64,000 nt of DNA, taken from assembly GCA_947468275.1 (NCBI GenBank), contig CANIKO010000016.1, positions 7,346 through 71,345 of the forward strand, read 5' to 3'. The notes under the pieces were generated by a model. It saw only the letters and a list, made by a program, of their open reading frames with translations, did not search any database and was not told the origin of the DNA. A program made the translations under genes and the position numbers. Source of the stretch: Bacteroidota bacterium (GTDB lineage Bacteria > Bacteroidota > Bacteroidia > NS11-12g > UBA9320). Positions 13,281 to 29,206 of this stretch are shown here, piece after piece. Each line of letters begins with the position of its first letter. The first letter of the stretch is position 1.

Positions 13281-13637
13281 TCAATCTTCTTTTTTTAGGC
13301 CACATTCCCATTGCTTGGCTTTGTTTTTAGCAAATAAAAAAATAGTTTCGTTTCTATAATCTCTTGGGCCTTCATCATTAGGCAATGACCCGTTTTGATA
13401 GGTTCCCGATACAATTACCTTTACCTGCCAAACTTTTTTCTCCTTCCATTTTTTAACTTCCAAAATCTTAATCTCGGAAATGTTATAGGTGCCTGAACCA
13501 TCCTGATTTGAGAGTTCTGCATAATGGTGCCTAATACATTTATTCACACTTTTTGTATCCGGTTGCGATTGGCAAGACTGTATTAAAAACAACAGTGTTA
13601 ATACCATTCCTATTTTTAAATAACTTTTCATACCCAT
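13281..13637 (-). CDS. Hypothetical lipoprotein
   Basis: Basic N-terminus, hydrophobic stretch, IQSC lipobox. Confidence 0.6.
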   Translation of the reverse strand: MGMKSYLKIGMVLTLLFLIQSCQSQPDTKSVNKCIRHHYAELSNQDGSGTYNISEIKILEVKKWKEKKVWQVKVIVSGTYQNGSLPNDEGPRDYRNETIFLFAKNKAKQWECGLKKED

Positions 13638-13813
13638 TTATTTATCAAACAAATTTAAAGGTAAATATCAATCCAATGAAAACACATTCCTTTCTTTCTT
13701 TTAATAAGTTTTATACCTGCTTTCGTTGTTTTTTGTCTAAAATTAAATTTACTAAACACTTAACACATTACCTTTGGACTCTCCAATGCTTGTATTTTAC
13801 TCAAAATAAATTA

Positions 13814-16705
13814 ATGACGTGTAGTTCCATTCCCAATTCCAAGATATCAATTTGTGTAACTTTGCTTTGGCTATTTATCATTTTTTCTTCCAGCCATTTG
13901 CAGGCCCAATCCATTTTTATAGCAGGCAAAATTATAGACAAGCTAGCCACCCCCTTAACTGGAGCAACGGTAAAAGTGTTGAACAAAGATTCGGTTTTTA
14001 TAAAAGGAAGCGCTACCGATGAAAGAGGATTTTTCAGAATAGTAGATTTAAAATCAGGAACCATTATTATTAAAATTACATACTTAGGTTTTGAAGATTT
14101 ATTTTTAAATAAACAATTGGCAGACAAGCCACTTTTTCTTGGACCAATCGTTTTGAAAGAAAATTCAAAAACTTTAAAAGGAGCAACGGTTAGCGCACAA
14201 GTAAAAATGGCGGAAATAAAAGGCGACACCACTCAATATAATGCGGGAGCCTTTAAAACCAACCCAGATGCTACAACTGAAGATTTAGTAAAAAAAATGC
14301 CGGGCATTACCACCGAAGATGGAAAACTTAAATCGCAGGGAGAAGAAATAAAGACAGTATTGGTAGACGGAAAACCTTTTTTTGGGGATGACCCAAGTGC
14401 TGTATTAAAAAATCTTCCAGCCGAGGTGGTTGATAAAATTCAAGTGTTTGACCGTAAAAGTGACCAAAGTCAACTTACCGGCTTCGATGATGGTAATACG
14501 TCCAAATCGATTAATATTATAACGAAGGCCCAATTTAGAAATGGAACTTTCGGAAAAATATATTCTGGATATGGATACCAAAATAAATATAAAGCGGGAG
14601 AAAGTGTTAATTTTTTTAAGGATAAACGCCGAATTACAATTTTGACGAATGCCAACAATATAAATGAACAAAATTTTTCAGCCGAAGATTTGGTTGGAGT
14701 TATGAGTACTTCTTCAGGAGGAAATCAAAGGCCGGGAAGTCAAAGTGGAAGTTCATCATCCGGAGGTTCAAACAGAGGTGGAGGAAGACAGTCGGGCGGC
14801 CAAGGCAATGATGCCAATAATTTTTTAGTGGATCAAAAAAACGGAATTTCTACAACCAATGCTTTTGGAATAAACTATTCCAACGGTTGGAAAAAGCTTG
14901 ATATTTCGGGAAGCTATTTTTTAAACTATACCGAGAATAATTCGGTAAGTAATTTATTCCGTCAATTTGTAAGCAATGAAACCAAAGGTTTGAATTATTT
15001 AGAAAAAAGCACTTCCATCACTTATAATACTAACCACCGCATGAACCTTAAATTTGATTGGAAAATAAACTCTAAAAATTCTCTTATTTTTCAACCTAAA
15101 ATTTCTTACCAGTACAATGCAGGCAACAGTGATATCAATGGCTTAAACAAACTTTTAAATACCTCATTAAGTAGTTTAAGCAATATTTATAAAACACATC
15201 TTGGAGGTTCAAATATTTCGGCACCAATTTTATATAAACATTCATTTGCAAAAAAAGGAAGGTCACTTTCTGTAAATTTCAATCCCGGATACAACAACAA
15301 TAATGGTAACAGTCAACTTAATTATTTTACAACTAAATATTCTGACACTATATCATCTAAAGATACAATTAGTCAAACTGCAAATTTGGTAAAAGATGGT
15401 TTTGTGGTTTTGTCCAATGTTTCTTATTCAGAACCTATCAATGCGAAAAGCCAAGTTTTATTGACTTATAGCACTAATTTTAATGCTTCTGATTCAAAGA
15501 AAAATACCTTTAATATTTCAACGCCTATATATTCGGAGGTTTTGGACACCTCCTTGTCAAACACCTTTAATACTAAATATTTTTCTCAATCATTAGGAAC
15601 TAGTTACCGTTATCAGATTGATAAATGGAATTTTAACGGAGGTCTGGCTTTTCAGCTGGCACAATTAAAAAACAGTCAACATTTTCCACCAAAAGCACCT
15701 TTAGAAAAAACGTTTTACAGCGTTCTTCCAAATGCATCGTTTCAATACAAATTTACACTTCAAAAAAACTTGCGAATTAGTTATAATAGTTCAAACAATG
15801 CGCCATCAGCTGACCAATTACAAAATGTAATTAATAATAAAAACCCAATATTATTAACCACAGGTAATCCATACCTAAAACAAGATTGGCAAAACAATAT
15901 TAACTTTAGATATACTGCGGTTGATACCAAGAAAAACACAGCATTTTTTGCATTGCTAGGTGGTTCATTAACCAAAAACTATATTGTGAATAGTACTTTT
16001 ATAGCCTCCTATGATACTTTAATAGCCCCTACTATTCTTTTGTCTAAAGGCTCACAAATTTCAAAACCTATAAATATTGATGGGTATTATAATTTGCGGT
16101 CTTTTGTTAATTATTCGTTTCCAATTAATAAATTGAAATTAAAAATCAATTTAAATGCGGGTGGTTCGGTAAACAGAACACCGGCCTTAATAAATGAAAA
16201 AATAAATTATGCCGACAATTCCAATGTGAATGCAGGAGTTGCCATTACCAGTAATATCAGTACTTTATGGGATTTTACCCTTTCATCCAATACCAGTTAC
16301 AGTTTAATTACCAATTCGCTTCAAACCAGTTTAAACAGCAGTTATATTAACCAAAATACCCGTTTCAAAATTCAGGCCAATCCTTGGAAAGGTTTGGTAA
16401 TAGTTACCGACCTTAGTCATCAATATTATAATGGGCTCTCAGCCAGTTATAATCAAAATTTTATGCTTTGGAGTGCCGCTATTGGCTATAAATTTCTAAA
16501 GGAAAAACAAGCCGATTTGCGATTGAGTGTATATGATATATTGAAACAAAACAATAGTATATCCCGCACCACCAGTGAAACCTATTATCAGGATGTTCAA
16601 ACCAACATATTGCAGCGATATTTTATGCTCACCTTTACTTACAATCTTAAATTTTTTAAGGATGCAAAAAAATCCGGAGAAAATTCAACGCTTAAAGTAA
16701 AATAA
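13814..16705 (+). CDS. Outer-membrane beta-barrel / TonB-dependent receptor-like protein
   Basis: Likely start ATG 13814; CarboxypepD_reg-like domain, KGDTTQYNA, EDLVKKMPG, VLVDGKPFFGDDP, GNPYLK, RYFMLTFTYNL. Confidence 0.82.
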   Translation: MTCSSIPNSKISICVTLLWLFIIFSSSHLQAQSIFIAGKIIDKLATPLTGATVKVLNKDSVFIKGSATDERGFFRIVDLKSGTIIIKITYLGFEDLFLNKQLADKPLFLGPIVLKENSKTLKGATVSAQVKMAEIKGDTTQYNAGAFKTNPDATTEDLVKKMPGITTEDGKLKSQGEEIKTVLVDGKPFFGDDPSAVLKNLPAEVVDKIQVFDRKSDQSQLTGFDDGNTSKSINIITKAQFRNGTFGKIYSGYGYQNKYKAGESVNFFKDKRRITILTNANNINEQNFSAEDLVGVMSTSSGGNQRPGSQSGSSSSGGSNRGGGRQSGGQGNDANNFLVDQKNGISTTNAFGINYSNGWKKLDISGSYFLNYTENNSVSNLFRQFVSNETKGLNYLEKSTSITYNTNHRMNLKFDWKINSKNSLIFQPKISYQYNAGNSDINGLNKLLNTSLSSLSNIYKTHLGGSNISAPILYKHSFAKKGRSLSVNFNPGYNNNNGNSQLNYFTTKYSDTISSKDTISQTANLVKDGFVVLSNVSYSEPINAKSQVLLTYSTNFNASDSKKNTFNISTPIYSEVLDTSLSNTFNTKYFSQSLGTSYRYQIDKWNFNGGLAFQLAQLKNSQHFPPKAPLEKTFYSVLPNASFQYKFTLQKNLRISYNSSNNAPSADQLQNVINNKNPILLTTGNPYLKQDWQNNINFRYTAVDTKKNTAFFALLGGSLTKNYIVNSTFIASYDTLIAPTILLSKGSQISKPINIDGYYNLRSFVNYSFPINKLKLKINLNAGGSVNRTPALINEKINYADNSNVNAGVAITSNISTLWDFTLSSNTSYSLITNSLQTSLNSSYINQNTRFKIQANPWKGLVIVTDLSHQYYNGLSASYNQNFMLWSAAIGYKFLKEKQADLRLSVYDILKQNNSISRTTSETYYQDVQTNILQRYFMLTFTYNLKFFKDAKKSGENSTLKVK

Positions 16706-16715
16706 CTTCAGAAGG

Positions 16716-17216
16716 TTATTCATTCCAAATTTTGTCTGTAGTAACATTATGACAACTGTTGCATTCACCACTAATAATAGGAGATTGCATATATTTTTTA
16801 TTGCCATTATTTTGTTGATGCACAGGATATAAACCACCGGTAAAATTTATAGTTTCGGTAGTATAAAAATTACCTTTACCATCAACCTCTATTGTATATT
16901 TGAGAGTACCTTTACCATCAGGATCTGTATACAAAAATATTTTTCCATTAGGATTGCGTGAAGCTTTGTCAGATTTATAGACGGAGCCTGCAGCAGTAAA
17001 CCAACCTGGACCTTCACCACCTACACTATGGCACCTCATACAATTCTTTCCGTTATTATGGCTATTATCGTCTCCCACACTGCTTTTCATAGATACTTTC
17101 ATACCCATTTTATAATGACTGCATGATTCGATGGCAATTGCTATTGCAATTAAAATAATGCTTAATAAAATTATTTTCTTTATTGACACGTTTCTATTTT
17201 TTTTAAAGACGCACAA
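16716..17216 (-). CDS. Small diheme c-type cytochrome lipoprotein
   Basis: CMRCH and CNSCH heme-binding motifs; IESC lipobox-like signal; start uncertain. Confidence 0.7.
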   Translation of the reverse strand: MCVFKKNRNVSIKKIILLSIILIAIAIAIESCSHYKMGMKVSMKSSVGDDNSHNNGKNCMRCHSVGGEGPGWFTAAGSVYKSDKASRNPNGKIFLYTDPDGKGTLKYTIEVDGKGNFYTTETINFTGGLYPVHQQNNGNKKYMQSPIISGECNSCHNVTTDKIWNE

Positions 17217-17379: not shown

Positions 17380-18285
17380 TTGAAACTTGTGAGCAATTAC
17401 CTAGATACACTTGAGTCAGAATCAATTTATATTTTTAGAGAGATTTATGGACAATTTAAAAAACCTGTACTGTTATTTTCTGGAGGCAAAGATTCAACAC
17501 TACTAATTCATTTAGCCCGAAAAGCACTATTTCCTGCAAATTCACCCTTTCCTCTTTTGCATATTGATACCGGTCATAACTTTAAGGAAGCACTTGATTT
17601 TAGAGATGAATTGGTAAGCAAGTTTGGCTTTAAACTGATTGTGCGAAAAGTGGAAGATACCATCAAAGAAAAAAATCTTGTTGATTCGACCGGTAAATTT
17701 CCAAGTAGAAATATTTTGCAGTCCATTACTTTATTGGATGCCATAAATGAGTTTGGTTTTGATGCTTGCATTGGTGGCGGACGAAGAGATGAAGAAAAAG
17801 CCAGAGCAAAGGAGCGAATATTTTCAATAAGGGATAAAAATGGAGCTTGGCAGCCCTATAACCAACGACCTGAATTATGGAAATTATTTAACGGAAAAAT
17901 TAATAAGGGTGAAAATGTGAGAGTGTTTCCTATTAGCAACTGGAGCGAACTGGATGTGTGGAATTATATACTTCGTGAAAAGATTGAACTACCTTCCTTA
18001 TATTTTGCTCATGACCGCGAGTGTATAAATTTTAATGGTAAACTAATAGCAGTTTCCGATTTTATTAATTTGGATGAAAATGATATAATTGAAAAGAAAA
18101 AAGTAAGGTACAGAACAGTTGGAGATATGACCTGCACCGCGGCAATAGAAAGCGAAGCTGCTAATATTGAACAAGTGATTGATGAAATTGCCTCATCCAA
18201 TATTAGTGAACGTGGCGAAACACGAATAGACGATCAATTTTCGGACGCAGCCATGGAAGATAGAAAATTACAAGGTTATTTTTAA
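17380..18285 (+). CDS. cysD: Sulfate adenylyltransferase subunit 2
   Basis: LESESIYIFRE, FSGGKDS, HIDTGHNF, GGGRRDEEKARAKER, RYRTVGD, C-terminal GYF. Confidence 0.96.
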   Translation: MKLVSNYLDTLESESIYIFREIYGQFKKPVLLFSGGKDSTLLIHLARKALFPANSPFPLLHIDTGHNFKEALDFRDELVSKFGFKLIVRKVEDTIKEKNLVDSTGKFPSRNILQSITLLDAINEFGFDACIGGGRRDEEKARAKERIFSIRDKNGAWQPYNQRPELWKLFNGKINKGENVRVFPISNWSELDVWNYILREKIELPSLYFAHDRECINFNGKLIAVSDFINLDENDIIEKKKVRYRTVGDMTCTAAIESEAANIEQVIDEIASSNISERGETRIDDQFSDAAMEDRKLQGYF

Positions 18286-18287
18286 AT

Positions 18288-19520
18288 TTGGATATACTTA
18301 GATTTATAACTGCAGGAAGCATTGATGATGGAAAAAGTACCCTCATTGGGAGATTGCTTTATGATATTGGCCAAATAAAATCGGATGTTATTCAATCTGT
18401 TTCTAAATCCAACAAAGCTGTAAATACTATAAATCTTGCACATATTACGGATGGCCTAAGAAGTGAACGGGAACAAGGAATAACAATCGATATAGCCTAT
18501 AAATATTTTACTACCCCGAATAGAAAATACATTATTACTGATGCTCCCGGTCATTTTCAATATACAAAAAATCTGGTAACCGGTGCCTCGGAAGTAGATG
18601 CTATGATTATTTTGATTGATGCGAATAATGGCATTACCGAGCAAACAAGACGACATTCATTAGTGGCTTCATTTCTTAATATCCCAAATGTGTTGGTGGC
18701 CATCAATAAGATGGATGATGTAGCTTACAGTGAAGAACAATTTACTTCCATTAAGAATCAATATTTGGTTATTGCTGAAAAATTAAAGCTTCAAAATATT
18801 TCCTTTTTCCCGATTAGTGCTTTGCTAGGTGATAATGTAAATTTAGCATCATCCAATATGATTTGGTATAAGGACAATACTCTTATGCAATGTTTGGAAA
18901 CTATAAATGCTAAAATAACAAACAACCATATTACACGATTTTCGGTGCAATGCGTTATTGAAACTAAAAACTTTGAAAAAGGATTTGCAGGAAAACTTAT
19001 ATCCGGAAATCTTAAAATCGGAGATTCAATTGAAATTAATCCGGAAAGAAAAAGTGCAATAATAAAAAATATAATTATTGGGAAATCATATAAAAATGAA
19101 GCCATGGCAGGTGATGATATTTGCCTTTATTTTGAAAATAGCATTGAGGCAAAAAGGGGGGATTTAATAAGTAAGTCCGCTAACGACTCACCGTTACTTT
19201 TTAGCAATAAATTGGAGACAACACTTTGTTGGCTTAATGAAGAAAAGCAATTGCAATCAGGAGAGGAGTATTTGTTAAGAATCAACTCGTTTGAAACAAA
19301 ATGCAGCATTACCAGTATTCTTCATAAAATTGATATTCAGTCTTTCGAAAAAAACACCGAAAAGAATTTATCCGGCATAAATGACTTTTTGGGAGTGATA
19401 ATTGAAACTGCTGAAGAAATTTCGTATGACCCTTTTTCAATATTACCTGAAACCGGCTGCGGAATACTTATTGATTTAAAAACAAATTATACTTCGGCGG
19501 CTTTTATTATTGAAAAATAA
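18288..19520 (+). CDS. cysN: Sulfate adenylyltransferase subunit 1 (GTPase), no fused APS kinase
   Basis: GSIDDGKSTLIGRL, EREQGITIDIAY, DAPGH, NKMD; TTG start. Confidence 0.94.
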   Translation: MDILRFITAGSIDDGKSTLIGRLLYDIGQIKSDVIQSVSKSNKAVNTINLAHITDGLRSEREQGITIDIAYKYFTTPNRKYIITDAPGHFQYTKNLVTGASEVDAMIILIDANNGITEQTRRHSLVASFLNIPNVLVAINKMDDVAYSEEQFTSIKNQYLVIAEKLKLQNISFFPISALLGDNVNLASSNMIWYKDNTLMQCLETINAKITNNHITRFSVQCVIETKNFEKGFAGKLISGNLKIGDSIEINPERKSAIIKNIIIGKSYKNEAMAGDDICLYFENSIEAKRGDLISKSANDSPLLFSNKLETTLCWLNEEKQLQSGEEYLLRINSFETKCSITSILHKIDIQSFEKNTEKNLSGINDFLGVIIETAEEISYDPFSILPETGCGILIDLKTNYTSAAFIIEK

Positions 19521-19548
19521 GGGTTGACAAATCCTATTTTTAAAACAC

Positions 19549-20250
19549 CTATTTCTTTTTAAAAAAATCAATAATTAATGTAGCACTTTCATCAACGCTT
19601 AGATTATTTGTATCTAAAATTATTTCCGGATTTAAGGGAGGATAGTAGGGTGCTGAAACTCCTGTAAAATCTTTTAATTCTCCGGATTGTGCTTTTTTAT
19701 AAAGTCCTTTTGGATCTCTTTCGATACAGACATCTAATTTTGTTGAAACGTATACCTCTATAAAATTAGAACACATTTTTCGTATTTCATTTCTGGTATC
19801 ATCATATGGTGAAATTAAGGATACAATAACTATGTTTCCCTGTTTTTCGAACAGAGAAGCAATATATCCTACATTTAAATTGTGCTTTTTTCTCGAATCT
19901 TCGTCAAATCCTTGCAGTTTTATGGCATGCCTAATTTCGTCACCATCCAAGATTACAGGTACAATGGATCTTTCTTTTAAGAGTTCAGTTAATTTGTTGG
20001 CTATGGTAGTTTTACCGGAACCACTTAACCCTGTTAACCAAATAACCGACGGCTTAACATCAAAACCGGTTAGTTTTTTCCAAAGAATATCAAAATAAGA
20101 ATAGGAAAATATTTTAACGAGTGTGTCTAATAACCCGATGGAAATGGCCGCAAGCAAATTTCCGGTAAGTATAAATGATATTACAAAGGTTATCAAAGTT
20201 GAAAACAACCTGTAAAAAACCGATTTCATTAATATTGATTTTTTTAACAT
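19549..20250 (-). CDS. cysC: Adenylyl-sulfate kinase with N-terminal DUF2061-like membrane domain
   Basis: WLTGLSGSGKTT, LDGD, SLISPY, RDPKGLYKKA, FTGVSAPY; about 60-aa hydrophobic N-domain. Confidence 0.92.
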   Translation of the reverse strand: MLKKSILMKSVFYRLFSTLITFVISFILTGNLLAAISIGLLDTLVKIFSYSYFDILWKKLTGFDVKPSVIWLTGLSGSGKTTIANKLTELLKERSIVPVILDGDEIRHAIKLQGFDEDSRKKHNLNVGYIASLFEKQGNIVIVSLISPYDDTRNEIRKMCSNFIEVYVSTKLDVCIERDPKGLYKKAQSGELKDFTGVSAPYYPPLNPEIILDTNNLSVDESATLIIDFFKKK

Positions 20251-21561
20251 TTACTTTTCTTTTAAAATTCTTGATTCCACTCTTCTGAATTTATTTCCGG
20301 CTGAATGTTCTATCGAATCGAAAAATAATAATTTGGTGGTTGTAATTCCATATTCCCCAAGTAATTCCTCAATTGCTCTTGTAAATTCAAGGATGCATTT
20401 TTCCTTTTGGTACAAATCTGTTTCCAAATAAATATGTAGTGTGTCAATATCTGTTTGAATAATCTTATAATTTTTAAACGTATCCGTTTGAATGGCAATC
20501 CTGCGGCAAATCAGGTCAGGATAAATCGAAACACTGCCTTTTTCAGAATGAAAAGTCAAAATATCATCGGCTCTTCCAACAATTTTTTCTAAAGCAATGA
20601 ACACCGAACCGCATTTGCATTTTTCCTTTTTTTCAATCAAAATATCATCTAATCGGTACCTAACCACGGGTTGGCTGCTTCTGCTAAAATCAGTGATGAT
20701 GGGATAAAACCGATTATCTTCAATCATTTCTTTTTCAACATGGATAATATCTTCGTTCAAATGCATCACACCGTATTTGCACGAAACCCCAAGAAATCCT
20801 TCTGTACATTGGTAAACTTCAGTTATTGGGCAATTAAAAGTTTCCTCTATTAATTTTTTATGTTCATTTTCTAATACCTCAGCAAATGAAATAATTTTTG
20901 TTGGCGAAACATTAAGCTTGCTTTTAATACTTAGTCTGCATAAATCCATAAGAACAGACGGTTGCGCAGCAATACTATTAGGATTAAATTGTTCAAGTTC
21001 TTCAGCTAGAATTTCCAAAGGTTTGAAAATATCAAAATATCTAAATTCAAACAGTGAAGAATTGACAGAAGTATAAAGATTATTATTGGCTCGCAGAAAA
21101 AAAGCAACCTTTTGACGTTTGAAAAGTTTTGGTTTTAATACACGTGTCATTACCATGGCTGTCCAGGCTGCACGTTCGTTTTCCGATACTATAAATATAC
21201 CCCGATGGCCGCTGGTTCCTGTAGAAAGTCCCACCGATATATTATTTATCACTGGGGCAAAGTCTCTTGTTTTTTCAGCTTCCAAGGCCACATTCATCGC
21301 TTCTTCAAGCTTTAACCCAACGGTGTTAATGCTATCAAATTGACCCATAAATTGTTTCTTTTGAATAACGGGAACATCGGTGAATGACTTAATATTTTTT
21401 ATATATGGTAAATAAAAAGGTGAATGAACTAAAACATTTGACACAAATTTTTTGAATGCCTTTTTCTGAAAATTTTCAAGTGATTCCCTATTTCTAAACG
21501 TTCCTCTAAAACGAAATCTTAGCCAATACTTTATAATTTTTAGTTTAAAAAGCATTCTCAA
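20251..21561 (-). CDS. F390 synthetase-related adenylate-forming enzyme (PaaK-like superfamily)
   Basis: GLSTGTSGHRG P-loop, EVYQCTEG, RYRLDD, GRADD. Confidence 0.85.
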   Translation of the reverse strand: MRMLFKLKIIKYWLRFRFRGTFRNRESLENFQKKAFKKFVSNVLVHSPFYLPYIKNIKSFTDVPVIQKKQFMGQFDSINTVGLKLEEAMNVALEAEKTRDFAPVINNISVGLSTGTSGHRGIFIVSENERAAWTAMVMTRVLKPKLFKRQKVAFFLRANNNLYTSVNSSLFEFRYFDIFKPLEILAEELEQFNPNSIAAQPSVLMDLCRLSIKSKLNVSPTKIISFAEVLENEHKKLIEETFNCPITEVYQCTEGFLGVSCKYGVMHLNEDIIHVEKEMIEDNRFYPIITDFSRSSQPVVRYRLDDILIEKKEKCKCGSVFIALEKIVGRADDILTFHSEKGSVSIYPDLICRRIAIQTDTFKNYKIIQTDIDTLHIYLETDLYQKEKCILEFTRAIEELLGEYGITTTKLLFFDSIEHSAGNKFRRVESRILKEK

Positions 21562-22387
21562 CGTGGTTTAAAGTTTGCGGACAATGGGTAAAAAGAATTT
21601 CAGTCTTCGGATTCTCCTTCAAAAATCTAAGTAAGTTTTCATTCGTTAGCTTAAAATCTTTCCATGAATCAAAAAATAATTTTACAATTGGTGAAGGCAA
21701 TATTTTGTTTAAAAAAGCACCTTTATCCCAAGCTGCATCCGTGGCATACAATAAATCCTGCTCTTCGGTTTTTAAATAAAAACCTATCATTCCACGGGCG
21801 TGGCCCGGTAACTCAACAAAGTGAAGTCCGTCATGATGAAAAGGAACGTAAAATTTAAGTTTGCTTACCGAATCAATAGACACACTATAAATATCCTCTA
21901 ACAAAACTATCCTTTCAAAAAAATCAATCGGCAGTAATTTTTTAAGTATTCCTTTTCTAACGGCTGCAAATCCGTTTAGTTCCTTGACTTGCTTTAGTGC
22001 TGCTTCCGTGCACAAAAATTTAGCTGAAGGGAAATCTTTCAGGGCACAAATATGGTCACCATGAAAATGAGAGATAACAAAATAATTCACATCCTCCGGC
22101 GCTATTCCTTCCTTTGCTAAAATAACTTTTGCAGTTTCTTCTTCTTTTATATCAACGGGTGTAGCCCATCTATAAAGTCGCTCAGGCAATTTTTTTGTAA
22201 CCTCAAAAAACTCTGAATTATAGCCTGCATCAAAAAGCATAATACCAAGTTCAGGATGTTTAATTAATGCCCAAACTGCATAAAACCGTGTCATTCCCCT
22301 TCCGCTTTTAAGGTTAACCACGCGGGCATGTGCAGTGCAATATCCCGAGGTAAAAAATTTAACTTCTATTTTGCTGCTTTGAACCAT
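21545..22387 (-). CDS. MBL-fold metallo-hydrolase (GumP-like)
   Basis: FDAGY, SHFHGDH (HxHxDH), LPGHARG, DAAW, THC. Confidence 0.88.
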   Translation of the reverse strand: MVQSSKIEVKFFTSGYCTAHARVVNLKSGRGMTRFYAVWALIKHPELGIMLFDAGYNSEFFEVTKKLPERLYRWATPVDIKEEETAKVILAKEGIAPEDVNYFVISHFHGDHICALKDFPSAKFLCTEAALKQVKELNGFAAVRKGILKKLLPIDFFERIVLLEDIYSVSIDSVSKLKFYVPFHHDGLHFVELPGHARGMIGFYLKTEEQDLLYATDAAWDKGAFLNKILPSPIVKLFFDSWKDFKLTNENLLRFLKENPKTEILFTHCPQTLNHVENAF

Positions 22388-23367
22388 TCAATAAATTCCA
22401 TTAATCCTTCATCTGTTGATTGCACTGGTTTATAATTTAAAAATTGTTTTGCTTCAGAAATATCCAAAGTCATGCTAACACCTAGGGTTCCCAATCCATA
22501 TTTGGTTATATCAGGTTCACCACTAATTCCTAGTAGTTTGTGTTTTTTTTCAATAAAAGAGGCGAATAATAAGGCCAGTGAAACGGGAACCTTCTTTTTC
22601 ACCGGTTCCAAATCTAATGCTTTAAGCACAAAATTAATTTTATCCCATAGAACGACAGGTTCTCCATTGCAAATGTTATAGGCTTTCCCAAAAGCATTTT
22701 CTACAGTGTTAACAGAACACTCAATGGCCTCTATCACATTTCTCACACAGGTAAGGTCACAAATATTCTTTCCGTTGCCAATAATTTTAAGTTTTCCGGA
22801 ATTATAGGCTCTTATTAATCGCGGCATAATCACCATATCTTCAGCTCCAATTATAGCTCTCGGACGGAGTGCCAAAGTTTTAATTCCGTTGCCATTTTGC
22901 TTTATTACCATTTCCTCTGCCAGCAATTTGGTAGATGCATAATGGTTTATCAATTGGGAAGGAAGAGCATCGGATTCTTTAATAGAAAATCGATTTTTAT
23001 GATTGTAATAAACACTTGGTGTTGAAATTAATATAAATTTTTTTACATGGTTTCTTACCGAAGCTTCCAACAAATTTTGAGTAGCTTCAAAATTGGCTTG
23101 ATAAAAATCTTTGTAATTGCCCCATGGCGATGAAAGTGCAGCACAATGAACCACCACTTCAACACCTTTTGTTATTTCATCGCAATGATTCATCTGTAAC
23201 AAATCACCAGGCATAAAGTTGCAATTATTTTCTTCTAACTCTCGCTGCCGTTCCGAACGACGCGAAGTTGCCACAACACTATATTTTTCTTTTTGCGAAG
23301 CAAAGTATTTAGCTGTTCGTCCACCTAAAAACCCTGCACTTCCTGTAATAAGTAGCTTAGTTGTCAT
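22366..23367 (-). CDS. NAD(P)-dependent 3-beta-HSD/OleD-like extended SDR
   Basis: TGSAGFLG, HCAALSSPWG, ISTPS, YASTK, LRPRAIIG. Confidence 0.88.
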   Translation of the reverse strand: MTTKLLITGSAGFLGGRTAKYFASQKEKYSVVATSRRSERQRELEENNCNFMPGDLLQMNHCDEITKGVEVVVHCAALSSPWGNYKDFYQANFEATQNLLEASVRNHVKKFILISTPSVYYNHKNRFSIKESDALPSQLINHYASTKLLAEEMVIKQNGNGIKTLALRPRAIIGAEDMVIMPRLIRAYNSGKLKIIGNGKNICDLTCVRNVIEAIECSVNTVENAFGKAYNICNGEPVVLWDKINFVLKALDLEPVKKKVPVSLALLFASFIEKKHKLLGISGEPDITKYGLGTLGVSMTLDISEAKQFLNYKPVQSTDEGLMEFIEWFKAAK

Positions 23368-23371
23368 TGGC

Positions 23372-24487
23372 TTAATTGGTTTTATAATTTTGAATTTCGT
23401 CTAAAGTAATACTCTTATAATGATGCGGACTTTTATACCTTTTTGATTTATTTTCTTCTGCAAGATAAATATCTTTTGCCGATTGGTTCATATCAATATT
23501 TAGAAGATTATATATTTTTTGACCTGTTTGAAAAGGATTTTTTGTAAGGTCTGAAAAATCAAGATTCAAAATTTTAGAACTGAAGCTGCTATTCTCACAA
23601 AAATTCTTTAATTTTTCATCCCATTTTAAAAGCGAAGCAATGGTTATTTCTTTTAACGGTTGAGATTCTTTTACTGAACACGCTCCTGAAAGTAGCCTGT
23701 TATTTAAACTTAAAGTAGAAGCTATTGCTTCCTTTTGGTTTCGAACAGGATTGATATAAAATGAATTGGGAAAATTTGAAGATAACAAATCTATCATTCC
23801 AGGATAGGCAGGGTTTTTGGAAACAAAATAACGATGCCCCGATTGGTTATAAAAATAATTATGCCGCTTTACACAATTGGTATAAAACCGCATCATTCGT
23901 TGTCCCGCCTCTGTATTATTGAGTTCGTCACGATTCAAAAGTGTGAGTTTTTTTTCAACATCCGGAAAAATGTATTGAAGATATATGCTTCGAAAAAGAA
24001 AAAGATAAAGAAACTCATCTTCTTCATTTGCAAAAAAAGAAATATCATGAACGCCTTTTGTTGACTTAAATAAAAATTTCTCTGCGAACAGAATCGACTT
24101 TTTTAAAGGTTTCCCAATAAATTCATCCAATTTAGAAAAAATGAGATAGAAGTATTTCTGGATTATTGAAGGTGCAAAAACCATTTCACCCAAACTAAAA
24201 CAGGTAAAATCTTTTTTATTGGCACAAATGAAATTTAAAAGAAATGAAGTTCCGGAACGTGGCATTCCTATTATAAAAATACTTTTTGAAACATCCGCTT
24301 TGTGATAGGATGGAAAAATTAATTCATCAAACCAAAGAAAAATCCAGTTTATTAATGTGTTTAAAAAGAATAATGGTAATACTAAAAAAACAAAAAACAG
24401 CCTTTTGAAGGAAGGAAATCGTAAGCTGCCTTTTTTAAATGAAAAGGAATGAGAGATTAAATAAAATGCCGTGCGAAAATCAAACAT
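23372..24487 (-). CDS. PAPS-dependent sulfotransferase with N-terminal membrane segment
   Basis: IFIIGMPRSGTSFL (5'-PSB), SKNP, VRNQKEAIAS (3'-PB). Confidence 0.85.
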   Translation of the reverse strand: MFDFRTAFYLISHSFSFKKGSLRFPSFKRLFFVFLVLPLFFLNTLINWIFLWFDELIFPSYHKADVSKSIFIIGMPRSGTSFLLNFICANKKDFTCFSLGEMVFAPSIIQKYFYLIFSKLDEFIGKPLKKSILFAEKFLFKSTKGVHDISFFANEEDEFLYLFLFRSIYLQYIFPDVEKKLTLLNRDELNNTEAGQRMMRFYTNCVKRHNYFYNQSGHRYFVSKNPAYPGMIDLLSSNFPNSFYINPVRNQKEAIASTLSLNNRLLSGACSVKESQPLKEITIASLLKWDEKLKNFCENSSFSSKILNLDFSDLTKNPFQTGQKIYNLLNIDMNQSAKDIYLAEENKSKRYKSPHHYKSITLDEIQNYKTN

Positions 24488-24490
24488 TAC

Positions 24491-25492
24491 TTAGTACCTA
24501 ATTAATAGCCCACCTATTGCAAATCCGGCTGATGTGCCGGTCAAAAACAGTGTATCTCCTGATTTTATCTTACCGTTTTTTATTGAATCACATAACATCA
24601 ATGGAATAGAAGCCGAAATACAATTCCCCTTTTCAGTAAGATTACTTATTTCTTTAGTTTCGTCAATATTATAGATTGAATTAAAAAGTTTCAATCCCAT
24701 TTTGCTTGCCTGATGCGGAAAGATATGATCAACACCTGAAATATCGATTGGCAAATCTTTAAAAAAAAGATTCATAAACTCAGGAATCTTGTTTTTTGCA
24801 AGTTTTAAAAGTTTAATACCTTCCATTGTAAATGAATGCAACTGTGGACTATACGGATTATCTTTAAAAAAGTATTTGTTTCCTCCCCCTTTAATTATAG
24901 TGTATTCAACCCCGTCCGAATACGTTTGCATATCATAATGAATGGCTCCCGATTCATTGGTTTCATCATATTTTATAATAACGGCTGCAGCTCCGTCACC
25001 AAACAAACTTAGGGTTTCCCAATTGGAAGCATCCAATCCCTTGGAAGAAATTTCGGAACAAACGACTGCAATATATTTTAATCTTGAATTGTCAACCATT
25101 CGTGAAGCATAATCAAGAGCCGTTACAAAACCCAGGCAGGTAGTATTAATATCTACACAAGGAATATTTATTGTGTTGCCGTCTTTTAATTCACTTTTTA
25201 TTAAGCTGGATTGATTGGGTAACGGGTGGTCATAAGTAGCCGAACCTGAAATTAACATCCCAATTTGCCTAAGTTCAATCCCTGCATTTGACATTGCTTC
25301 ATTTAATGCTTCGGCCCCAAGTTGGGCCACAGTTTCATAGGTTGCATGATAACGCACATCAACTCCCGAATTTTTAAAACTCCATCCTTCTGGTATTCCA
25401 TGCTTTTTTTCAAGTGCTTCGGAGGTTACCTTATTTGCGGGGAAACTAGTTCCTGTTCCTACAATTTTAAAAGCTCGTTTTACATTCAACAT
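24491..25492 (-). CDS. 3-oxoacyl-ACP synthase III (FabH/OleA/GumO-like) condensing enzyme
   Basis: Cys-His-Asn triad: TTCLGF, PHQAS, GNCISAS; LFGDGAAA; ATG at 25492. Confidence 0.88.
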   Translation of the reverse strand: MLNVKRAFKIVGTGTSFPANKVTSEALEKKHGIPEGWSFKNSGVDVRYHATYETVAQLGAEALNEAMSNAGIELRQIGMLISGSATYDHPLPNQSSLIKSELKDGNTINIPCVDINTTCLGFVTALDYASRMVDNSRLKYIAVVCSEISSKGLDASNWETLSLFGDGAAAVIIKYDETNESGAIHYDMQTYSDGVEYTIIKGGGNKYFFKDNPYSPQLHSFTMEGIKLLKLAKNKIPEFMNLFFKDLPIDISGVDHIFPHQASKMGLKLFNSIYNIDETKEISNLTEKGNCISASIPLMLCDSIKNGKIKSGDTLFLTGTSAGFAIGGLLIRY

Positions 25493-25494
25493 AA

Positions 25495-26625
25495 TCAAGG
25501 ATTTTTTAAGGATGATAGGTTTGTTTTTTTATTCAACTGAGAATAAAAATTTATAAGAATAATCAACGTGTAAACCATGCTAAAACCAAAAAGAAATATT
25601 ACAATTAATGGCACCGAATACTGCCAAATAAATACAGAAAGACCCAAACAGAAAAATAATATCCAACTAATCATTCCCCATATTCTTCCTTCGGCAAGGC
25701 CGCAAATAGAAATGGTACTAAAAAAAATAATAACGAACAAACAGGATAATTGCAGGGTGTCCCAACTCTTTTCAACGGATATATAAAATAACAGCCATCC
25801 AAATAAGAGTAATCCGCCCAATCCAATTAAGAAATCATTCAGCATATAAACCTGTGATTTTTCAGTTTTAAAAGAAGGTTCTTTAATTCCTAAAAAACGG
25901 AGAAATGGAACCGTATTTATCCAAAACGGGTTTTCGGATTTTATCGGTTCATCTATGCCAAATTTTATTGGAACATCTTTCAGTTCCGTTTGAAAAGTTC
26001 CAAATAATTTATCCCAAATAATAAAAGCGCCCGAACAGTTTTTGTCTAGATATTCAGGATTTCTTCCGTGATGAACCTTATGGTGTGCAGGAGTTACCAT
26101 GAAATATTCCAACCAGCCTGATCTTTTTACCAAACGATTATGATTATAAAATTGAATGAAATAGTGAATTGACCCAACAATCACAAATTGTTCTAACGAG
26201 GCTCCAAGAATGGCAAGTGGAATAAAAAATGGTATTGAGGTTAGTGAAGAGTACCACGAATTGCGAATGCCTAATGACAAGCTAAAATGCTCGCCTTGAT
26301 GATGAACCACATGAATACTCCACAAAAGTGGAATGGAATGATGTAATCTGTGCAGCCAGTAGAAACAAAAATCCCAAGCTATAAAAACAAAAATCCATTG
26401 AATTGCTTTTGGCCAATGGCCTATCCAACCCAATGTAAAATGATTTAAAATATAAGAATAACAAAGCACTTCTATCCCACGCCCAACCCACATTAATACA
26501 TGGCCCGAGTTAAGATTCAAAACCATTTCTTTCCACGGCAATGGCTCTTTCATGCTAAAATGGATAATCAAAAATTCAATGATTATCAACCCATAAAGTA
26601 AAGCAATTCCTAATGCTGTTTCCAT
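25495..26625 (-). CDS. Fatty acid hydroxylase/sterol desaturase family membrane enzyme, alkylglycerol monooxygenase-like
   Basis: His boxes HRLHH, HVVHH, NH, HHKVHH; TPAHHKVHHGRN...DKN...IIWDKLFGTF; extra C-terminal TM segments. Confidence 0.85.
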   Translation of the reverse strand: METALGIALLYGLIIIEFLIIHFSMKEPLPWKEMVLNLNSGHVLMWVGRGIEVLCYSYILNHFTLGWIGHWPKAIQWIFVFIAWDFCFYWLHRLHHSIPLLWSIHVVHHQGEHFSLSLGIRNSWYSSLTSIPFFIPLAILGASLEQFVIVGSIHYFIQFYNHNRLVKRSGWLEYFMVTPAHHKVHHGRNPEYLDKNCSGAFIIWDKLFGTFQTELKDVPIKFGIDEPIKSENPFWINTVPFLRFLGIKEPSFKTEKSQVYMLNDFLIGLGGLLLFGWLLFYISVEKSWDTLQLSCLFVIIFFSTISICGLAEGRIWGMISWILFFCLGLSVFIWQYSVPLIVIFLFGFSMVYTLIILINFYSQLNKKTNLSSLKNP

Positions 26626-26871
26626 ATTTTAACCTATCACAAAGATTAACGGAACGTGGTAATAAAAAAAATTAGTTTGCACAAAAGCATTTTTAGTTTT
26701 GGCAATAAACCCTAATTTTATTTAAAGAGTTAAAAGTAATTATTGGTTTTTGCAAAAAACAAATTCAATACACCCAAATTTTGCATTTTTTGCAAATTAT
26801 AACATTACAAAAAATCGCTTATGAACCGATAATTCTTATAAAACTTCCAACCTTTTTTGTAAGCTTTTATT

Positions 26872-26879
26872 TAAGTTTG
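26872..26879 (+). promoter_or_regulatory. -7 box TAAGTTTG for thyA (near-leaderless)
   Basis: TAnnTTTG ending 5 nt before the ATG at 26885. Confidence 0.5.
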
Positions 26880-26884
26880 CATTT

Positions 26885-29149: not shown

Positions 29150-29206
29150 TATTAATTTAAGTGGGCAAAGGTAAAGTTTTGAAATCAAATGCCCATTTTT
29201 GCAACT

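Follow-up and report, generated by a model that had tools for sequence, protein, structure and literature searches.

A conserved Bacteroidota gene cluster with its own PAPS supply is a candidate operon for a sulfated, fatty-acid-derived metabolite

The window analysed here is a 64,000-nt stretch of contig CANIKO010000016.1 from a freshwater Bacteroidota bacterium. The locus contains cysD and cysN on the plus strand (17380–19520), facing seven packed minus-strand genes (19549–26625); cysN and cysC converge, with their stop codons 28 nt apart. From cysC to the hydroxylase gene, the ORF coordinates give successive gaps of 0, −17, −22, +4, +3 and −4 nt, in agreement with the initial annotation, which described seven genes overlapping or 0–4 nt apart. 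Because the ORFs of the F390-synthetase-related enzyme and the ketosynthase (KS) each have a TTG start followed by an ATG two codons on, exact overlaps may shift by 6 nt. The gene families named in that annotation are borne out by family-model scores for all nine genes. Compared with a relative (L003, 86–93% identical), all nine genes have a dN/dS of 0.065–0.157, indicating purifying selection, and inspection of motifs shows that the catalytic motifs of the cluster enzymes are unbroken. Judged from these sequence features, the nine genes are conserved and functional. A 259-nt intergenic region (26626–26884) separates the operon from the divergent thyA and, from its position, presumably contains the promoter. 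A scan for sigma-70-type sites, a model that does not cover Bacteroidota promoters, showed no excess, with 46 sites versus 44.2 ± 7.3 in shuffled sequences. A domain search of the locus detected no ACP, acyltransferase or exporter in the operon, and the window as a whole contains neither an ACP nor an α/β-hydrolase thioesterase.

Three of the nine genes encode sulfate activation. CysDN produces APS, and CysC converts APS to PAPS. The sulfate adenylyltransferase small subunit, CysD (17380–18285, plus strand), scores 407.9 bits on TIGR02039 (cut-off 396.6), and the GTPase subunit, CysN (18288–19520, plus strand), scores 408.8 bits on TIGR02034 (cut-off 336.1). CysN has 410 residues, aligns to model positions 1–405 and has no fused kinase domain. 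The APS kinase is encoded by the last gene of the operon (19549–20250, minus strand; TIGR00455, 192.4 versus 138.7; APS_kinase, E = 3.5e-51) and carries a DUF2061 domain (E = 2.6e-12; 47.4 bits versus 23.1), with hydrophobic residues 6–50 at its N-terminus. In the whole genome, this CysC is the sole convincing match to APS_kinase, with one further marginal P-loop match. The initial annotation noted that the window has no PAPS reductase or sulfite reductase, and this holds for the whole genome, which is 99.26% complete. Specifically, a genome-wide search with PF01507 gives one match, which is this cysD, so that no cysH (PAPS/APS reductase) is found, and a genome-wide search for the sulfite reductase domain NIR_SIR gives no match, with the control positive in 11 of 14 genomes. 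The possibility raised earlier that this is the sole assimilatory cysDN, which would have counted against the sulfation reading, is therefore not supported: cysD and cysC are indeed the only ones in the genome, but cysH and NIR_SIR were not found. Because both reductases are missing and cysD, cysC and the detectable sulfotransferase each occur once, all of them at this locus, PAPS serves sulfation and not assimilation, as the initial annotation had proposed. On this gene content, PAPS synthesis is devoted to sulfation, and the genome is unable to support growth on sulfate.

Four genes of the operon form a core. The KAS-III-type, FabH-like KS (24491–25498, minus strand) has the N- and C-terminal ACP_syn_III domains, and its Cys-His-Asn motifs are present, with C121, H262 and N292 invariant. 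It is closest to CorB (4yuc, E = 2.8e-56) and MxnB (4v2p, E = 1.3e-55), a family-level similarity of 194 bits over about 327 residues, while the best FabH has E = 4.7e-36. The KS is a dedicated enzyme: it scores 169.6 bits on the fabH model (cut-off 292.1), and two true FabH genes lie elsewhere in the genome (382 and 365 bits). The extended SDR (22366–23367, minus strand; 3Beta_HSD, 120 bits; Epimerase, 121 bits) contains the motifs GSAGFLGG and YASTK, and NSDHL is its nearest relative of known structure (E = 2.8e-24). It probably acts on a 3-oxo acid or thioester, reducing the keto group to a 3-hydroxyl. The metallo-beta-lactamase-fold (MBL) hydrolase (21545–22387, minus strand; Lactamase_B, 38.2 versus 22.7, E = 1.9e-9) has H107, H109, D111, H112, H196, D217 and H268 invariant across 38 homologues. 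The best PDB fold matches of its predicted model (pLDDT 95) are all lactonases down to about rank 26 (TMq 0.64–0.75), suggesting that it may open a lactone intermediate or decarboxylate it. The F390-synthetase-related enzyme (20251–21561, minus strand; TIGR02304, 448.4 bits versus 251.9) is a PaaK-type adenylate-forming enzyme, with PaaK ligases as its best solved relatives (E = 1e-8) and the motifs STGTSGHRG, YQCTEG and GRADD. It probably activates the carboxylate of a fatty or hydroxy acid.

The remaining two genes encode a PAPS-dependent sulfotransferase and a membrane hydroxylase. The sulfotransferase (23372–24487, minus strand; Sulfotransfer_3, PF13469, 67.9 bits versus 27) has a conserved PRSGT loop, with R77, E101, K224 and S257 invariant across 32 homologues, and a hydrophobic N-terminal helix at residues 24–53. 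Its predicted model (pLDDT 92) matches the mycobacterial enzymes Stf9 (TMq 0.73) and Stf1 (TMq 0.63) over the full length, versus 0.37 and 0.34 for the CurM and OLS domains. It is the only match in the genome to Sulfotransfer_1 and Sulfotransfer_3; the control was weak for Sulfotransfer_4 and silent for Sulfotransfer_2 and Stf0, so that further PAPS-using enzymes may exist. The hydroxylase, encoded by the first gene of the operon (25495–26625, minus strand), belongs to the membrane di-iron FA_hydroxylase family (PF04116, 96 bits versus 31) and contains the histidine boxes HRLHH, HVVHH and HHKVHH. It has several hydrophobic segments and is predicted to be an integral membrane protein with an extra C-terminal transmembrane bundle. 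Its Atlas model resembles alkylglycerol monooxygenase (AGMO; TM 0.80) and FA_hydroxylase-YhhN fusions, and it also matches the OlsE model (E = 6.9e-22).

The initial annotation described the KS/SDR/MBL/F390 set as a recurrent cassette, and loci found across at least 10 phyla confirm this; a literature search found no publication on it. Co-conservation of sulfotransferase and core is borne out, consistent with the earlier proposal. Specifically, a search with the sulfotransferase profile found 80 loci, 24 with at least two adjoining core genes and 19 with all four; in 17 of the 24, tblastn match ends place KS and sulfotransferase less than 50 nt from each other. The remaining 56 homologues lack a core in their vicinity, and 28 of these are flanked on each side by 5 kb of sequence or more. 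A homologous sulfotransferase is present in 28 of 84 other unique core loci, and cys genes lie within 9 kb of 6 of these 28 versus none of the 56 cores lacking it, in a pooled sample that was partly gathered by sulfotransferase searches and with counts that ignore kinship. The cys arrangement varies: cysC-D-N lies upstream in L040 but downstream in L068 and L118, while L038 and L125 have only cysC. In all five sampled genomes whose cluster has no adjoining cys genes, cysC and cysD are located elsewhere. Among 401 random Bacteroidota genomes, sulfotransferase homologues occur in 9 and TIGR02304 matches in 10 (8 over the cut-off); the source genome is the only one with both.

The genes around the core vary. 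The KS clade of the window is not exclusive to sulfotransferase-bearing loci: it is also found where only the hydroxylase is present and where both hydroxylase and sulfotransferase are missing. In L027, conversely, hydroxylase and sulfotransferase are paired in the absence of the core. A DesA-like fatty-acid desaturase is added in sister clusters (8 loci). A classical AMP-binding enzyme, either fatty-acid-CoA-ligase-like or OleC-like, replaces the F390-type enzyme in L026, L061 and L125. Other cassettes carry ATP-grasp, Rieske, radical SAM, methyltransferase or GT4 genes, and in some variants head-group-type tailoring genes adjoin the core in place of the sulfotransferase; these alternative modules include an ATP-grasp enzyme with an unknown protein, and GT4 with a carbamoyltransferase and PAP2_C. 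We propose that an old core of four genes has been combined with different tailoring modules, among them the sulfotransferase. In phylogenetic trees, the F390 gene nests among sulfotransferase-free cassettes (support 99), while the KS nests in another KS clade as sister to L026 (support 100). The cassette may therefore be a mosaic, with KS, sulfotransferase and hydroxylase from one lineage and SDR, MBL and F390 from another.

Because sulfate activation is kept without sulfate-based growth and lies beside an operon of core and sulfotransferase, the locus probably makes a sulfated lipid-like compound. Our leading interpretation, to which we assign a probability of about 50%, is an operon for a stable, fatty-acid-derived sulfate ester, most likely a membrane-associated sulfated hydroxy-lipid. 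CysDN would yield APS, which the membrane-anchored DUF2061-CysC would convert to PAPS. The KS would form a 3-oxo product by joining either two acyl-derived thioesters or an acyl unit with a malonyl unit, and the SDR would reduce the 3-oxo group to a hydroxyl. The adenylating enzyme would either prime the starting acid or close a lactone like OleC, and the MBL would open or otherwise process the lactone. The AGMO-like enzyme would hydroxylate the alkyl chain, and the N-terminally anchored Stf-type sulfotransferase would transfer sulfate from PAPS to a hydroxyl. Which substrates are used, in what order the steps run and which hydroxyl receives sulfate are guesses. A lipid or membrane character is suggested by the hydrophobic segments of CysC, sulfotransferase and hydroxylase, the AGMO/OlsE-like nature of the latter, the desaturases and the ligase-like replacements. 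A stable sulfate is favoured by the Stf9/Stf1 fold, the core-free hydroxylase-sulfotransferase pair and the head-group-type tailoring variants. Several observations weigh against this interpretation: the sulfotransferase is found in only 28 of the 84 core loci and cys genes near only 6 of these 28, the 401-genome sample has a single genome with both sulfotransferase homologue and TIGR02304 match, the KS clade also occurs without the sulfotransferase, 56 of the 80 sulfotransferase homologues stand apart from the core, and the operon lacks an ACP, acyltransferase and exporter.

It is less likely, though the first alternative to consider, that sulfate is a leaving group. The sulfotransferase would sulfate the 3-hydroxyl made by KS and SDR, the MBL (in relatives, an α/β-hydrolase) would free the acid, and decarboxylation with departure of the sulfate would give an olefin, as a discrete-enzyme counterpart of CurM/OLS assembled from Ole-like parts. 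Each catalytic role of OLS/CurM has a match, namely adenylating loader, KS, ketoreductase-like SDR, sulfotransferase and hydrolase, and by analogy this set would suit the olefin logic equally well. The KS directly adjoins the sulfotransferase in most sulfotransferase-bearing loci, the SDR is OleD-like, one relative has an OleC-like enzyme, and the sulfotransferase profile reaches the CurM (E = 3.7e-9) and OLS (E = 1e-7) domains; the fold of the predicted model, however, is of the Stf type. An α/β-hydrolase of the epoxide-hydrolase/dehalogenase type directly follows the sulfotransferase in 12 of 25 sulfotransferase-bearing clusters, but the best 60 of its 203 PDB sequence hits include none that specifically matches a known sulfate-eliminating thioesterase, and the operon in the window has neither this enzyme nor an ACP. 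Furthermore, because the adenylating enzyme and lactonase are kept with or without the sulfotransferase, the latter looks accessory, and the hydrophobic N-termini of sulfotransferase and CysC and the pairing with the hydroxylase fit a head group better.

Somewhat more doubtful is that the product, rather than being a membrane lipid, is a secondary metabolite or signal, namely a small sulfated compound of the lactone or pyrone type. In this case the KS would fuse two short 3-oxoacyl chains into a pyrone or lactone, MBL and SDR would remodel the product, and the sulfotransferase would sulfate an enol or alcohol. Caprazamycin biosynthesis offers a precedent for sulfated alkyl-pyrones. The nearest relatives of the KS (E = 1e-56) are CorB and MxnB, whose pyrone-forming chemistry is described in PMC4578411; the MBL has the fold of a lactonase, and the highly variable tailoring is typical of secondary metabolites. 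The likeness to CorB/MxnB is at the family level, however, no nearby PKS would provide 3-oxoacyl chains, and the desaturase, hydroxylase and fatty-acid-ligase-like genes suggest long alkyl chains. We consider it improbable that the sulfotransferase and cys genes merely neighbour the core and act on another acceptor, for example a polysaccharide, a tyrosine residue in a protein or a sterol-like compound taken up from outside. Most homologues indeed lack the core, the profile reaches tyrosylprotein sulfotransferases (E = 4e-10), and homologues adjoin cysC alone in L079, L080, L092 and L098, reminiscent of the cysDNC-BtSULT locus of Bacteroides. BtSULT is described as a Sulfotransfer_3 member in PMC13449962. 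However, the sulfotransferase lies inside the operon, flanked by KS and SDR at gaps of 3–4 nt, its adjacency to the KS recurs in several Bacteroidota families, a Rhodothermaceae MAG and a Balneola MAG, and cys genes adjoin only sulfotransferase-bearing cores. Least probable of all is a catabolic or detoxifying cassette that degrades lactones (e.g., quorum signals) or modifies imported lipids, with sulfation as conjugation: the closeness of the MBL to quorum-quenching lactonases, the frequent role of PaaK-type ligases in opening catabolic routes and the resemblance of the hydroxylase to the ether-lipid-cleaving AGMO would fit, but a condensing KS with an unbroken catalytic triad is biosynthetic and a constant member of the cassette, and the cassette has no conserved association with transporter, regulator or beta-oxidation genes.

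The initial annotation interpreted the locus by reference to Ole and CurM/OLS enzymes. Overall, its proposals of PAPS for sulfation, of linkage between sulfotransferase, cys genes and core, and of a resemblance to Ole stand, while orthology to Ole or CurM/OLS does not. For CurM/OLS, no orthologue is found in the cluster, and the predicted model gives the sulfotransferase the fold of mycobacterial Stf enzymes, which differs from that of the CurM/OLS sulfotransferase domains. For Ole, the SDR scores 205 bits (E = 1e-60) on NF042423 and 200 bits (E = 4.5e-59) on NF042422, both below the cut-off of 580, and none of the genes qualifies as an orthologue of an Ole enzyme; in L061, an OleC-like enzyme occupies the usual place of the F390-type gene. 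Compared with the Ole system, the cluster has an SDR that resembles OleD, an MBL with a lactonase fold and a KS that is nearest to CorB and MxnB.

The locus comprises seven minus-strand genes that converge on a plus-strand cysDN pair, cysD (17380-18285, +) and cysN (18288-19520, +). Reading outwards from cysN, the seven genes, all on the minus strand, encode the APS kinase CysC with an N-terminal DUF2061 (19549-20250), an F390-type adenylating enzyme (20251-21561), an MBL-fold hydrolase (MBL; 21545-22387), a 3-beta-HSD/epimerase-type SDR (22366-23367), a Sulfotransfer_3 sulfotransferase (ST; 23372-24487), a KAS-III-type ketosynthase (KS; 24491-25498), and an FA_hydroxylase-family di-iron enzyme (hydroxylase; 25495-26625), with junctions of 0, −17, −22, +4, +3, and −4 nt in that order. 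cysN and the last gene of the operon are convergent, and their stop codons are 28 nt apart. The ORF map agrees with the gene arrangement described in the initial annotation, and Pfam and NCBIfam support every family named there. All nine genes have dN/dS of 0.065–0.157 relative to the close relative L003 (86–93% protein identity), and the remaining genes of the window are housekeeping genes. A sigma-70 scan, which does not cover Bacteroidota promoters, gave 46 sites compared with 44.2 in shuffled sequences, and a terminator scan gave 8 compared with 6.7. Twenty DNA runs, freshwater and lake metagenomes from 8 studies, are listed as holders of the locus, and no RNA run is among the holders.

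Several features of the surroundings were also recorded. L003 carries two additional same-strand ORFs between cysC and cysN (L003:11044-12179; DUF1214, 204 aa, and DUF1254, 175 aa), where the window has the 28 nt. Directly upstream of cysD, the window (13553-17216) encodes a 1050-aa outer-membrane beta-barrel protein (OMP_b-brl_3 and CarboxypepD_reg) and then a 166-aa protein with weak CXXCH cytochrome-c-type matches only, the L003 counterpart of which (67% identity) likewise adjoins cysD. On the other side of the operon, a 530-aa ORF without Pfam match (29189-30781, +) and a flavin amine-oxidase-like gene (27749-29188, −) are divergently oriented, and the G+C content of the stretch around it is raised (0.41 versus ~0.33).

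CysDN makes APS, and CysC converts APS to PAPS. The three proteins pass the curated cut-offs of their families: 407.9 versus 396.6 bits for CysD (TIGR02039), 408.8 versus 336.1 bits for CysN (TIGR02034), and 192.4 versus 138.7 bits for the APS kinase (TIGR00455), the N-terminus of which is hydrophobic. In the genome (3.31 Mb, 32 contigs, 99.26% complete), PF01507, which covers both CysD and CysH, has one match, this cysD, so no cysH was found (control positive in 14 of 14 genomes). PF01077, which represents the sulfite/nitrite reductase domain, matched nothing in the genome, with the control positive in 11 of 14 genomes, and no sulfite reductase was found. Thus, neither component by which assimilatory sulfate reduction was to be recognized was detected in the genome. 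The search for APS kinases returned this cysC and one marginal P-loop match. Sulfotransfer_3 and Sulfotransfer_1 searches of the genome matched the operon ST only; Sulfotransfer_2 and Stf0 searches gave no match with silent controls, and Sulfotransfer_4 gave none with a weak control.

With the only cysD and cysC matches and the only detected ST in one locus, the sole detected genes of sulfate activation adjoin the sole detected consumer of PAPS. The proposal that the cluster has its own PAPS supply is therefore borne out: one cysDN, one convincing cysC, and one detected ST, and no reductive branch found in a 99.26%-complete genome. The initial annotation had set against this proposal the case that the pair is the only assimilatory cysDN of the genome. 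It is indeed the only cysDN; however, it does not appear to be assimilatory, as neither cysH nor a sulfite reductase was found. A lake bacterium apparently incapable of sulfate reduction nevertheless spends ATP and GTP on activating sulfate for one ST in one operon. This cost suggests that the sulfated product is probably important to the cell, with possible roles in the envelope or as a surfactant, a defence compound, or a signal.

The ST scores 67.9 bits on PF13469 (Sulfotransfer_3; cut-off 27). Its PRSGT loop, the 5’-phosphosulfate-binding loop, is conserved in 32 sequences, with R77 invariant and P76, S78, G79, and T80 nearly invariant, and residues E101, K224, and S257 are also invariant. 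The predicted model (pLDDT 92) has full-length matches to mycobacterial Stf9 (TMq, the fold-match score, 0.73) and Stf1 (0.63), whereas OLS, CurM, and TPST structures align with it on the core alone (TMq 0.34–0.40). The family score, the binding loop, and the modelled fold together place the enzyme among PAPS-dependent STs of the Stf type. Consistent with this, a profile built from 31 ST homologues (28–46% identity) matches Stf1 with an E-value of 5.7e-20, compared with 3.7e-9 (4gbm) and 1e-7 (4gox) for the CurM/OLS ST domains; by profile E-values and TMq (0.37 and 0.34), the ST is not most similar to the CurM/OLS domains. The N-terminus of the ST has a long hydrophobic helix, and from their sequences both the ST and CysC look membrane-anchored.

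The nearest solved relatives of the KS are CorB (E-value 2.8e-56) and MxnB (1.3e-55), followed by the best FabH (4.7e-36), while OleA structures match residues 60–151 only (about 4e-14). Across 24 sequences, C121, H262, and N292 do not vary, so the putative Cys-His-Asn triad of a CorB/MxnB relative is intact. The KS falls below the housekeeping FabH model TIGR00747 (169.6 versus 292.1 bits), and two true FabH genes are encoded elsewhere in the genome (382.5 and 364.6 bits). The SDR aligns over its full length with two OleD models, at 205.2 bits (NF042423, E-value 1e-60) and 200.5 bits (NF042422, 4.5e-59), both below the cut-off of 580; its sequence thus places it as an OleD homologue and not an equivalog. 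The best solved relative of the SDR is NSDHL.

The putative metal site of the MBL (HxHxDH..H..D..H) is complete, with H107, H109, D111, H112, H196, D217, and H268 invariant. In the PDB, the fold matches of its model (pLDDT 95) are all AHL lactonases or 4-pyridoxolactonase to about rank 26 (TMq 0.64–0.75), and the protein is probably an MBL-fold lactonase. On every NCBIfam lactonase model the protein scores far under the cut-off, with AttM highest (64 versus 390), and the MBL is therefore assigned to no named lactonase family. The lactonase matches at the top make a lactone a likelier substrate than a thioester, and the same matches make an assignment as a PqsE- or glyoxalase-II-type thioesterase less likely.

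The adenylating enzyme is of the PaaK/F390 type. It passes the equivalog model TIGR02304, F390 synthetase-related (448.4 versus 251.9 bits; model positions 2–428 of 430), its P-loop, YQCTEG, and GRADD motifs are intact, and it has no OleC model match. At 50% identity and an E-value of at most 1e-30, its family forms 489 clusters among 1.84 billion representatives. The hydroxylase has three intact histidine boxes, and its Atlas model is similar to alkylglycerol monooxygenase and to bacterial FA_hydroxylase-lysoplasmalogenase fusions (TM ~0.8); OlsE is its sole NCBIfam match. Sterol C4-demethylation by an ERG25-like hydroxylase and an NSDHL-like SDR was considered and rejected, because the hydroxylase is present in just 19 of the 84 core loci among the matches listed, and it is also disfavoured by the SDR score on the OleD models, which is double that on any other model.

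KS, SDR, MBL, and the F390-type enzyme make up a four-gene core that recurs without the other genes. A search with the F390-type protein returned 13 loci. L003 has the complete set in unchanged order; 11 of the remaining 12 have SDR-MBL-F390, usually followed by KS, and no ST or cys genes were found in those 12. A scan with the single ST protein returned near-identical L003 only, whereas the ST profile returned 106 relatives, of which the best 80 were kept. At least two of the four core genes adjoin the ST in 24 of these best 80 of 106 loci, and all four do so in 19. The usual order is SDR-MBL-F390-KS-ST, and the ends of the KS and ST tblastn matches are less than 50 nt apart in 17 loci. The other 56 of the best 80 of 106 lack the core, 28 of them flanked by 5 kb or more of sequence on each side, and are mostly from Desulfobacterales, Haliea/Alcanivorax, and Chloroflexota.

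A KS profile, independent of the ST, returned 229 relatives. Among the best 80, the four-gene core occurs in Bacteroidota, Balneola, Cyanobacteria, Sericytochromatia, Chloroflexota, Chlamydiae, Polyangiales, Actinomycetota, Paenibacillus, and Gammaproteobacteria. The core spans at least 10 phyla and, besides Bacteroidota, Cyanobacteria, Chlamydiae, Chloroflexota, Paenibacillus, and other groups, is also present in Myxococcota. Pooled and deduplicated, the matches listed contain 84 core loci besides the window, 28 of them with an ST. Thus, the association of ST and core on which the initial annotation depended is upheld by the 24 ST loci with at least two core genes among the best 80 of 106.

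The cys genes follow the ST. Of the 28 ST-bearing core loci, 6 (L003, L038, L040, L068, L118, and L125) have them within 9 kb, compared with none of the 56 without ST (Fisher p = 0.0009, uncorrected for kinship and from a sample partly selected via the ST). In L040 they lie upstream of the cluster and are colinear with it; in L068 and L118 they lie downstream, with CysN and CysC fused in L118; and L038 and L125 have cysC alone. These differing arrangements argue for repeated recruitment. In all five sampled genomes whose cluster has no adjacent cys genes, cysC and cysD are encoded elsewhere. Among 401 random Bacteroidota genomes, ST homologues occur in 9 (22–28% identity to the window ST) and TIGR02304 matches in 10 (8 over the cut-off), and the two overlap in this genome only, a result that weighs against the link of ST and core and indicates that the ST-bearing variant is rare. 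Among the loci sampled, this variant was met in MAGs only.

Individual relatives differ in other ways. In the Balneola MAG locus L118, SDR-MBL-F390-KS-ST-cysD is followed by a 627-aa ORF matching both cysN and cysC (13088-14971 of L118), the CysN-CysC fusion, and there is no separate DUF2061-CysC. Two contigs of one Saprospiraceae MAG each carry part of the set: L027 has an ST (39% identity) beside a hydroxylase (48%) with no core within 10 kb, and L122 has a KS (56% identity) alone among housekeeping genes. L119, L120, and L132, which are related and have SDR-MBL-KS, have no F390-type gene between MBL and KS, and the adenylating enzymes of L026 and L061 were not found there by tblastn. The cluster of L052, on a contig labelled ‘uncultured Akkermansia sp.’, is nearly identical to that of L048 from a Flavobacteriales MAG, and the two are sisters with very short branches in both trees, suggesting mis-binning or recent transfer.

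In FastTree phylogenies, the window F390 gene lies inside a clade of ST-less cassettes (support 99), while the window KS lies in the other KS clade, as sister to that of L026 from Cyclobacteriaceae (support 100). The order hydroxylase-KS-ST-SDR-MBL is common to L026 and the window. The discordant placements indicate that the operon combines a KS/ST/hydroxylase block with an SDR/MBL/F390 block. The reading that the KS tree cleanly separates ST-bearing from ST-less cassettes was withdrawn, as in the KS-profile scan the clade of the window KS also includes cassettes with the hydroxylase alone, or bare ones; in Shiella aurantiaca (L124), this type of KS occurs with a hydroxylase and no ST. From the sequence trees, the apparent mosaic placement is all that stands.

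The genes around the core vary widely. The commonest form, found in several phyla and often with a Rieske oxygenase, has an ATP-grasp enzyme and a protein of ~370–385 aa without Pfam match. Further neighbours are PAP2_C with GT4 and a carbamoyltransferase; GH3 with an acyltransferase; a formyltransferase, radical SAM enzyme, or methyltransferase; and a DesA-like desaturase. Among cultured strains without an ST, Shiella aurantiaca LB-30 (L124) has the core with a hydroxylase, Aestuariivivens sediminis S-DT1-15 (L127) has the ATP-grasp form, and Paenibacillus sp. DS2015 carries L168. Outside Bacteroidota, L162 (Simkaniaceae), L164 (a gammaproteobacterium), L168 (Paenibacillus), and L175 (Scytonema) share the order KS–ATP-grasp–SDR–MBL–F390; the next gene encodes the ~370–385-aa protein in L162, L164, and L175 and a short-chain dehydrogenase in L168, and L162 and L175 also have the Rieske oxygenase. 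In 12 of 25 clusters the gene directly after the ST encodes an alpha/beta-hydrolase, absent from the window operon, which is hardly ever found together with the hydroxylase. Against the PDB, this alpha/beta-hydrolase gives generic epoxide-hydrolase, dehalogenase, and C-C-hydrolase matches only (best 60 of 203). The adenylating enzyme is variable as well. A fatty-acid-CoA-ligase-like AMP-binding enzyme replaces the F390 type in L026 and L125 (mutual identity 41%), that of L026 being weakly OleC-like. The L061 enzyme passes PRK09274 (592 versus 478 bits), scores 459 and 448 bits on two OleC beta-lactone-synthetase models with cut-offs of 850 and 900, and is adjoined by a second OleD-like reductase (404 bits).

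These assignments can be arranged into a pathway. CysDN supplies APS and CysC converts it to PAPS, as established for these families. The KS would condense acyl-derived thioesters to a 3-oxo product, which the OleD-like SDR would reduce to a 3-hydroxy acid. The adenylating enzyme may prime the acid or close a lactone, the lactonase-fold MBL would process the lactone, and the di-iron enzyme would hydroxylate the chain. Finally, the Stf-type ST, at the membrane, would sulfate a hydroxyl. We favour a stable sulfate ester as the outcome, with a probability of about 0.5: the ST behaves as one exchangeable accessory among several head-group enzymes, it folds like the Stf enzymes, it is paired with the hydroxylase (in L027 the pair is present without the core), and both ST and CysC look membrane-anchored.

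An alternative is that sulfate serves as a leaving group and an olefin results. The enzyme roles match those of OLS/CurM one to one, and KS and ST are adjacent; however, the defining features of CurM/OLS, namely the ST type, the thioesterase, and the ACP, were looked for in the window and not found, and we consider this outcome unlikely. A small sulfated lactone or pyrone is rather improbable as the end product. It is very unlikely that the ST and cys genes are unrelated neighbours of the core, with which the ST is co-conserved, and a catabolic role of the operon is the least probable reading. More broadly than the sulfate ester, we tentatively suggest, as a possibility to be held with doubt, that ST-bearing cassettes represent a third route, made up of discrete enzymes, in which the logic of Ole and that of CurM merge. 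A 2-alkyl-3-hydroxy acid would be built by a CorB-like KS together with an OleD-like reductase, and PAPS-dependent sulfation would act alongside the adenylating enzyme and the lactonase-fold MBL, leading either to decarboxylative olefin formation or to branched hydroxy- or lactone lipids that carry sulfate and form a new class, in uncultured Bacteroidota of fresh and marine waters. The four-gene core, in at least 10 phyla, would then define an undescribed lipid family whose head groups (sulfate, amino-acyl, glycosyl, or carbamoyl) can be exchanged.

No description of the cassette was found in the openly available full-text articles searched, and two papers naming ‘coenzyme F390 synthetase’ list that enzyme only in tables. 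The novelty lies in the joining of sulfation to a multi-phylum, uncharacterised KS/SDR/lactonase/adenylase core, in a genome where sulfate is apparently activated for that purpose alone. Several hundred orphan clusters could be annotated once the product is identified, and the core chemistry becomes accessible through the sulfated variant, which can be traced by 34S labelling and by the m/z 97 fragment. Should sulfate act as a leaving group, the locus would be a compact alkene pathway of five to seven genes without a PKS, of interest for hydrocarbon engineering. Clustering of PAPS genes with an ST is already known. Bacterial sulfonation of hydroxy fatty acids has also been reported (PMC13449962).

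The operon resembles OleABCD in bringing together four roles in a small operon: a thiolase-fold condensing enzyme, a 3-beta-HSD-type reductase, an adenylating enzyme, and a hydrolase-fold enzyme acting on lactones. The two OleD models give the window SDR 205 and 200 bits, and L061 has both the OleC-like enzyme and the second OleD-like reductase. It differs in that the KS is CorB/MxnB-like and matches OleA only in part, the adenylating enzyme is PaaK/F390-type and not OleC-type, the MBL with its lactonase fold takes the place of the alpha/beta-hydrolase OleB, for which the operon has no counterpart of that fold, and ST, di-iron hydroxylase, and PAPS genes are added. The analogy to Ole made in the initial annotation thus holds for the logic, through the OleD-like SDR and the OleC-like enzyme of L061, but not for family membership, since no window gene attains an Ole model cut-off (580 for OleD; 850 and 900 for OleC). 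CorB, MxnB, and PpyS are head-to-head, pyrone-forming ketosynthases: KAS-III-like enzymes that stand alone, carry a Cys-His-Asn triad, and couple two acyl chains (PMC4578411). CorB and MxnB are the best solved relatives of the window KS, but at the family level only, and the window differs in having no trans-AT PKS context and in the OleD-like reductase and lactonase that follow the KS.

By analogy, the operon would share with CurM/OLS a PAPS-dependent sulfation that adjoins KS and ketoreduction on a fatty-acid-derived chain, and the STs belong to the same broad Sulfotransfer_3-type group. In contrast to the PKS domains of CurM/OLS, the window enzymes are discrete proteins, no PP-binding or alpha/beta-hydrolase domain was found in the seven operon proteins, and the ST fold is nearer to Stf9/Stf1, with an N-terminal hydrophobic helix. 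Mycobacterial Cyp128 and Stf3 make sulfomenaquinone. Similarly, the window has a stand-alone ST of ~370–400 aa with, as modelled, the same full-length fold and a hydroxylase gene paired with it, the mycobacterial ST acting on a lipid; one ST homologue (P0047) carries the source label omega-hydroxy-beta-dihydromenaquinone-9 sulfotransferase. However, sequence identity between the window ST and the solved Stf structures is ~13%, the hydroxylase is a di-iron membrane enzyme and not a P450, and the pair forms part of a KS/SDR/MBL/ligase operon.

PAPS genes are clustered with an ST in rhizobia (NodPQ/NodH) and in the BtSULT locus of Bacteroides (cysDNC). The bacterial Sulfotransfer_3 enzymes BtSULT and ErSULT use PAPS made by CysDN and CysC, and sulfonation of hydroxy fatty acids, reported in 2026, provides a documented acceptor for ErSULT (PMC13449962). 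Their substrates are imported or host-derived, and unlike the window ST they do not belong to a biosynthetic operon with a KS. Taken at the level of sequence, the operon appears to be in part OleABCD-like and in part like Stf- or BtSULT-type sulfation, and to be a member of neither.
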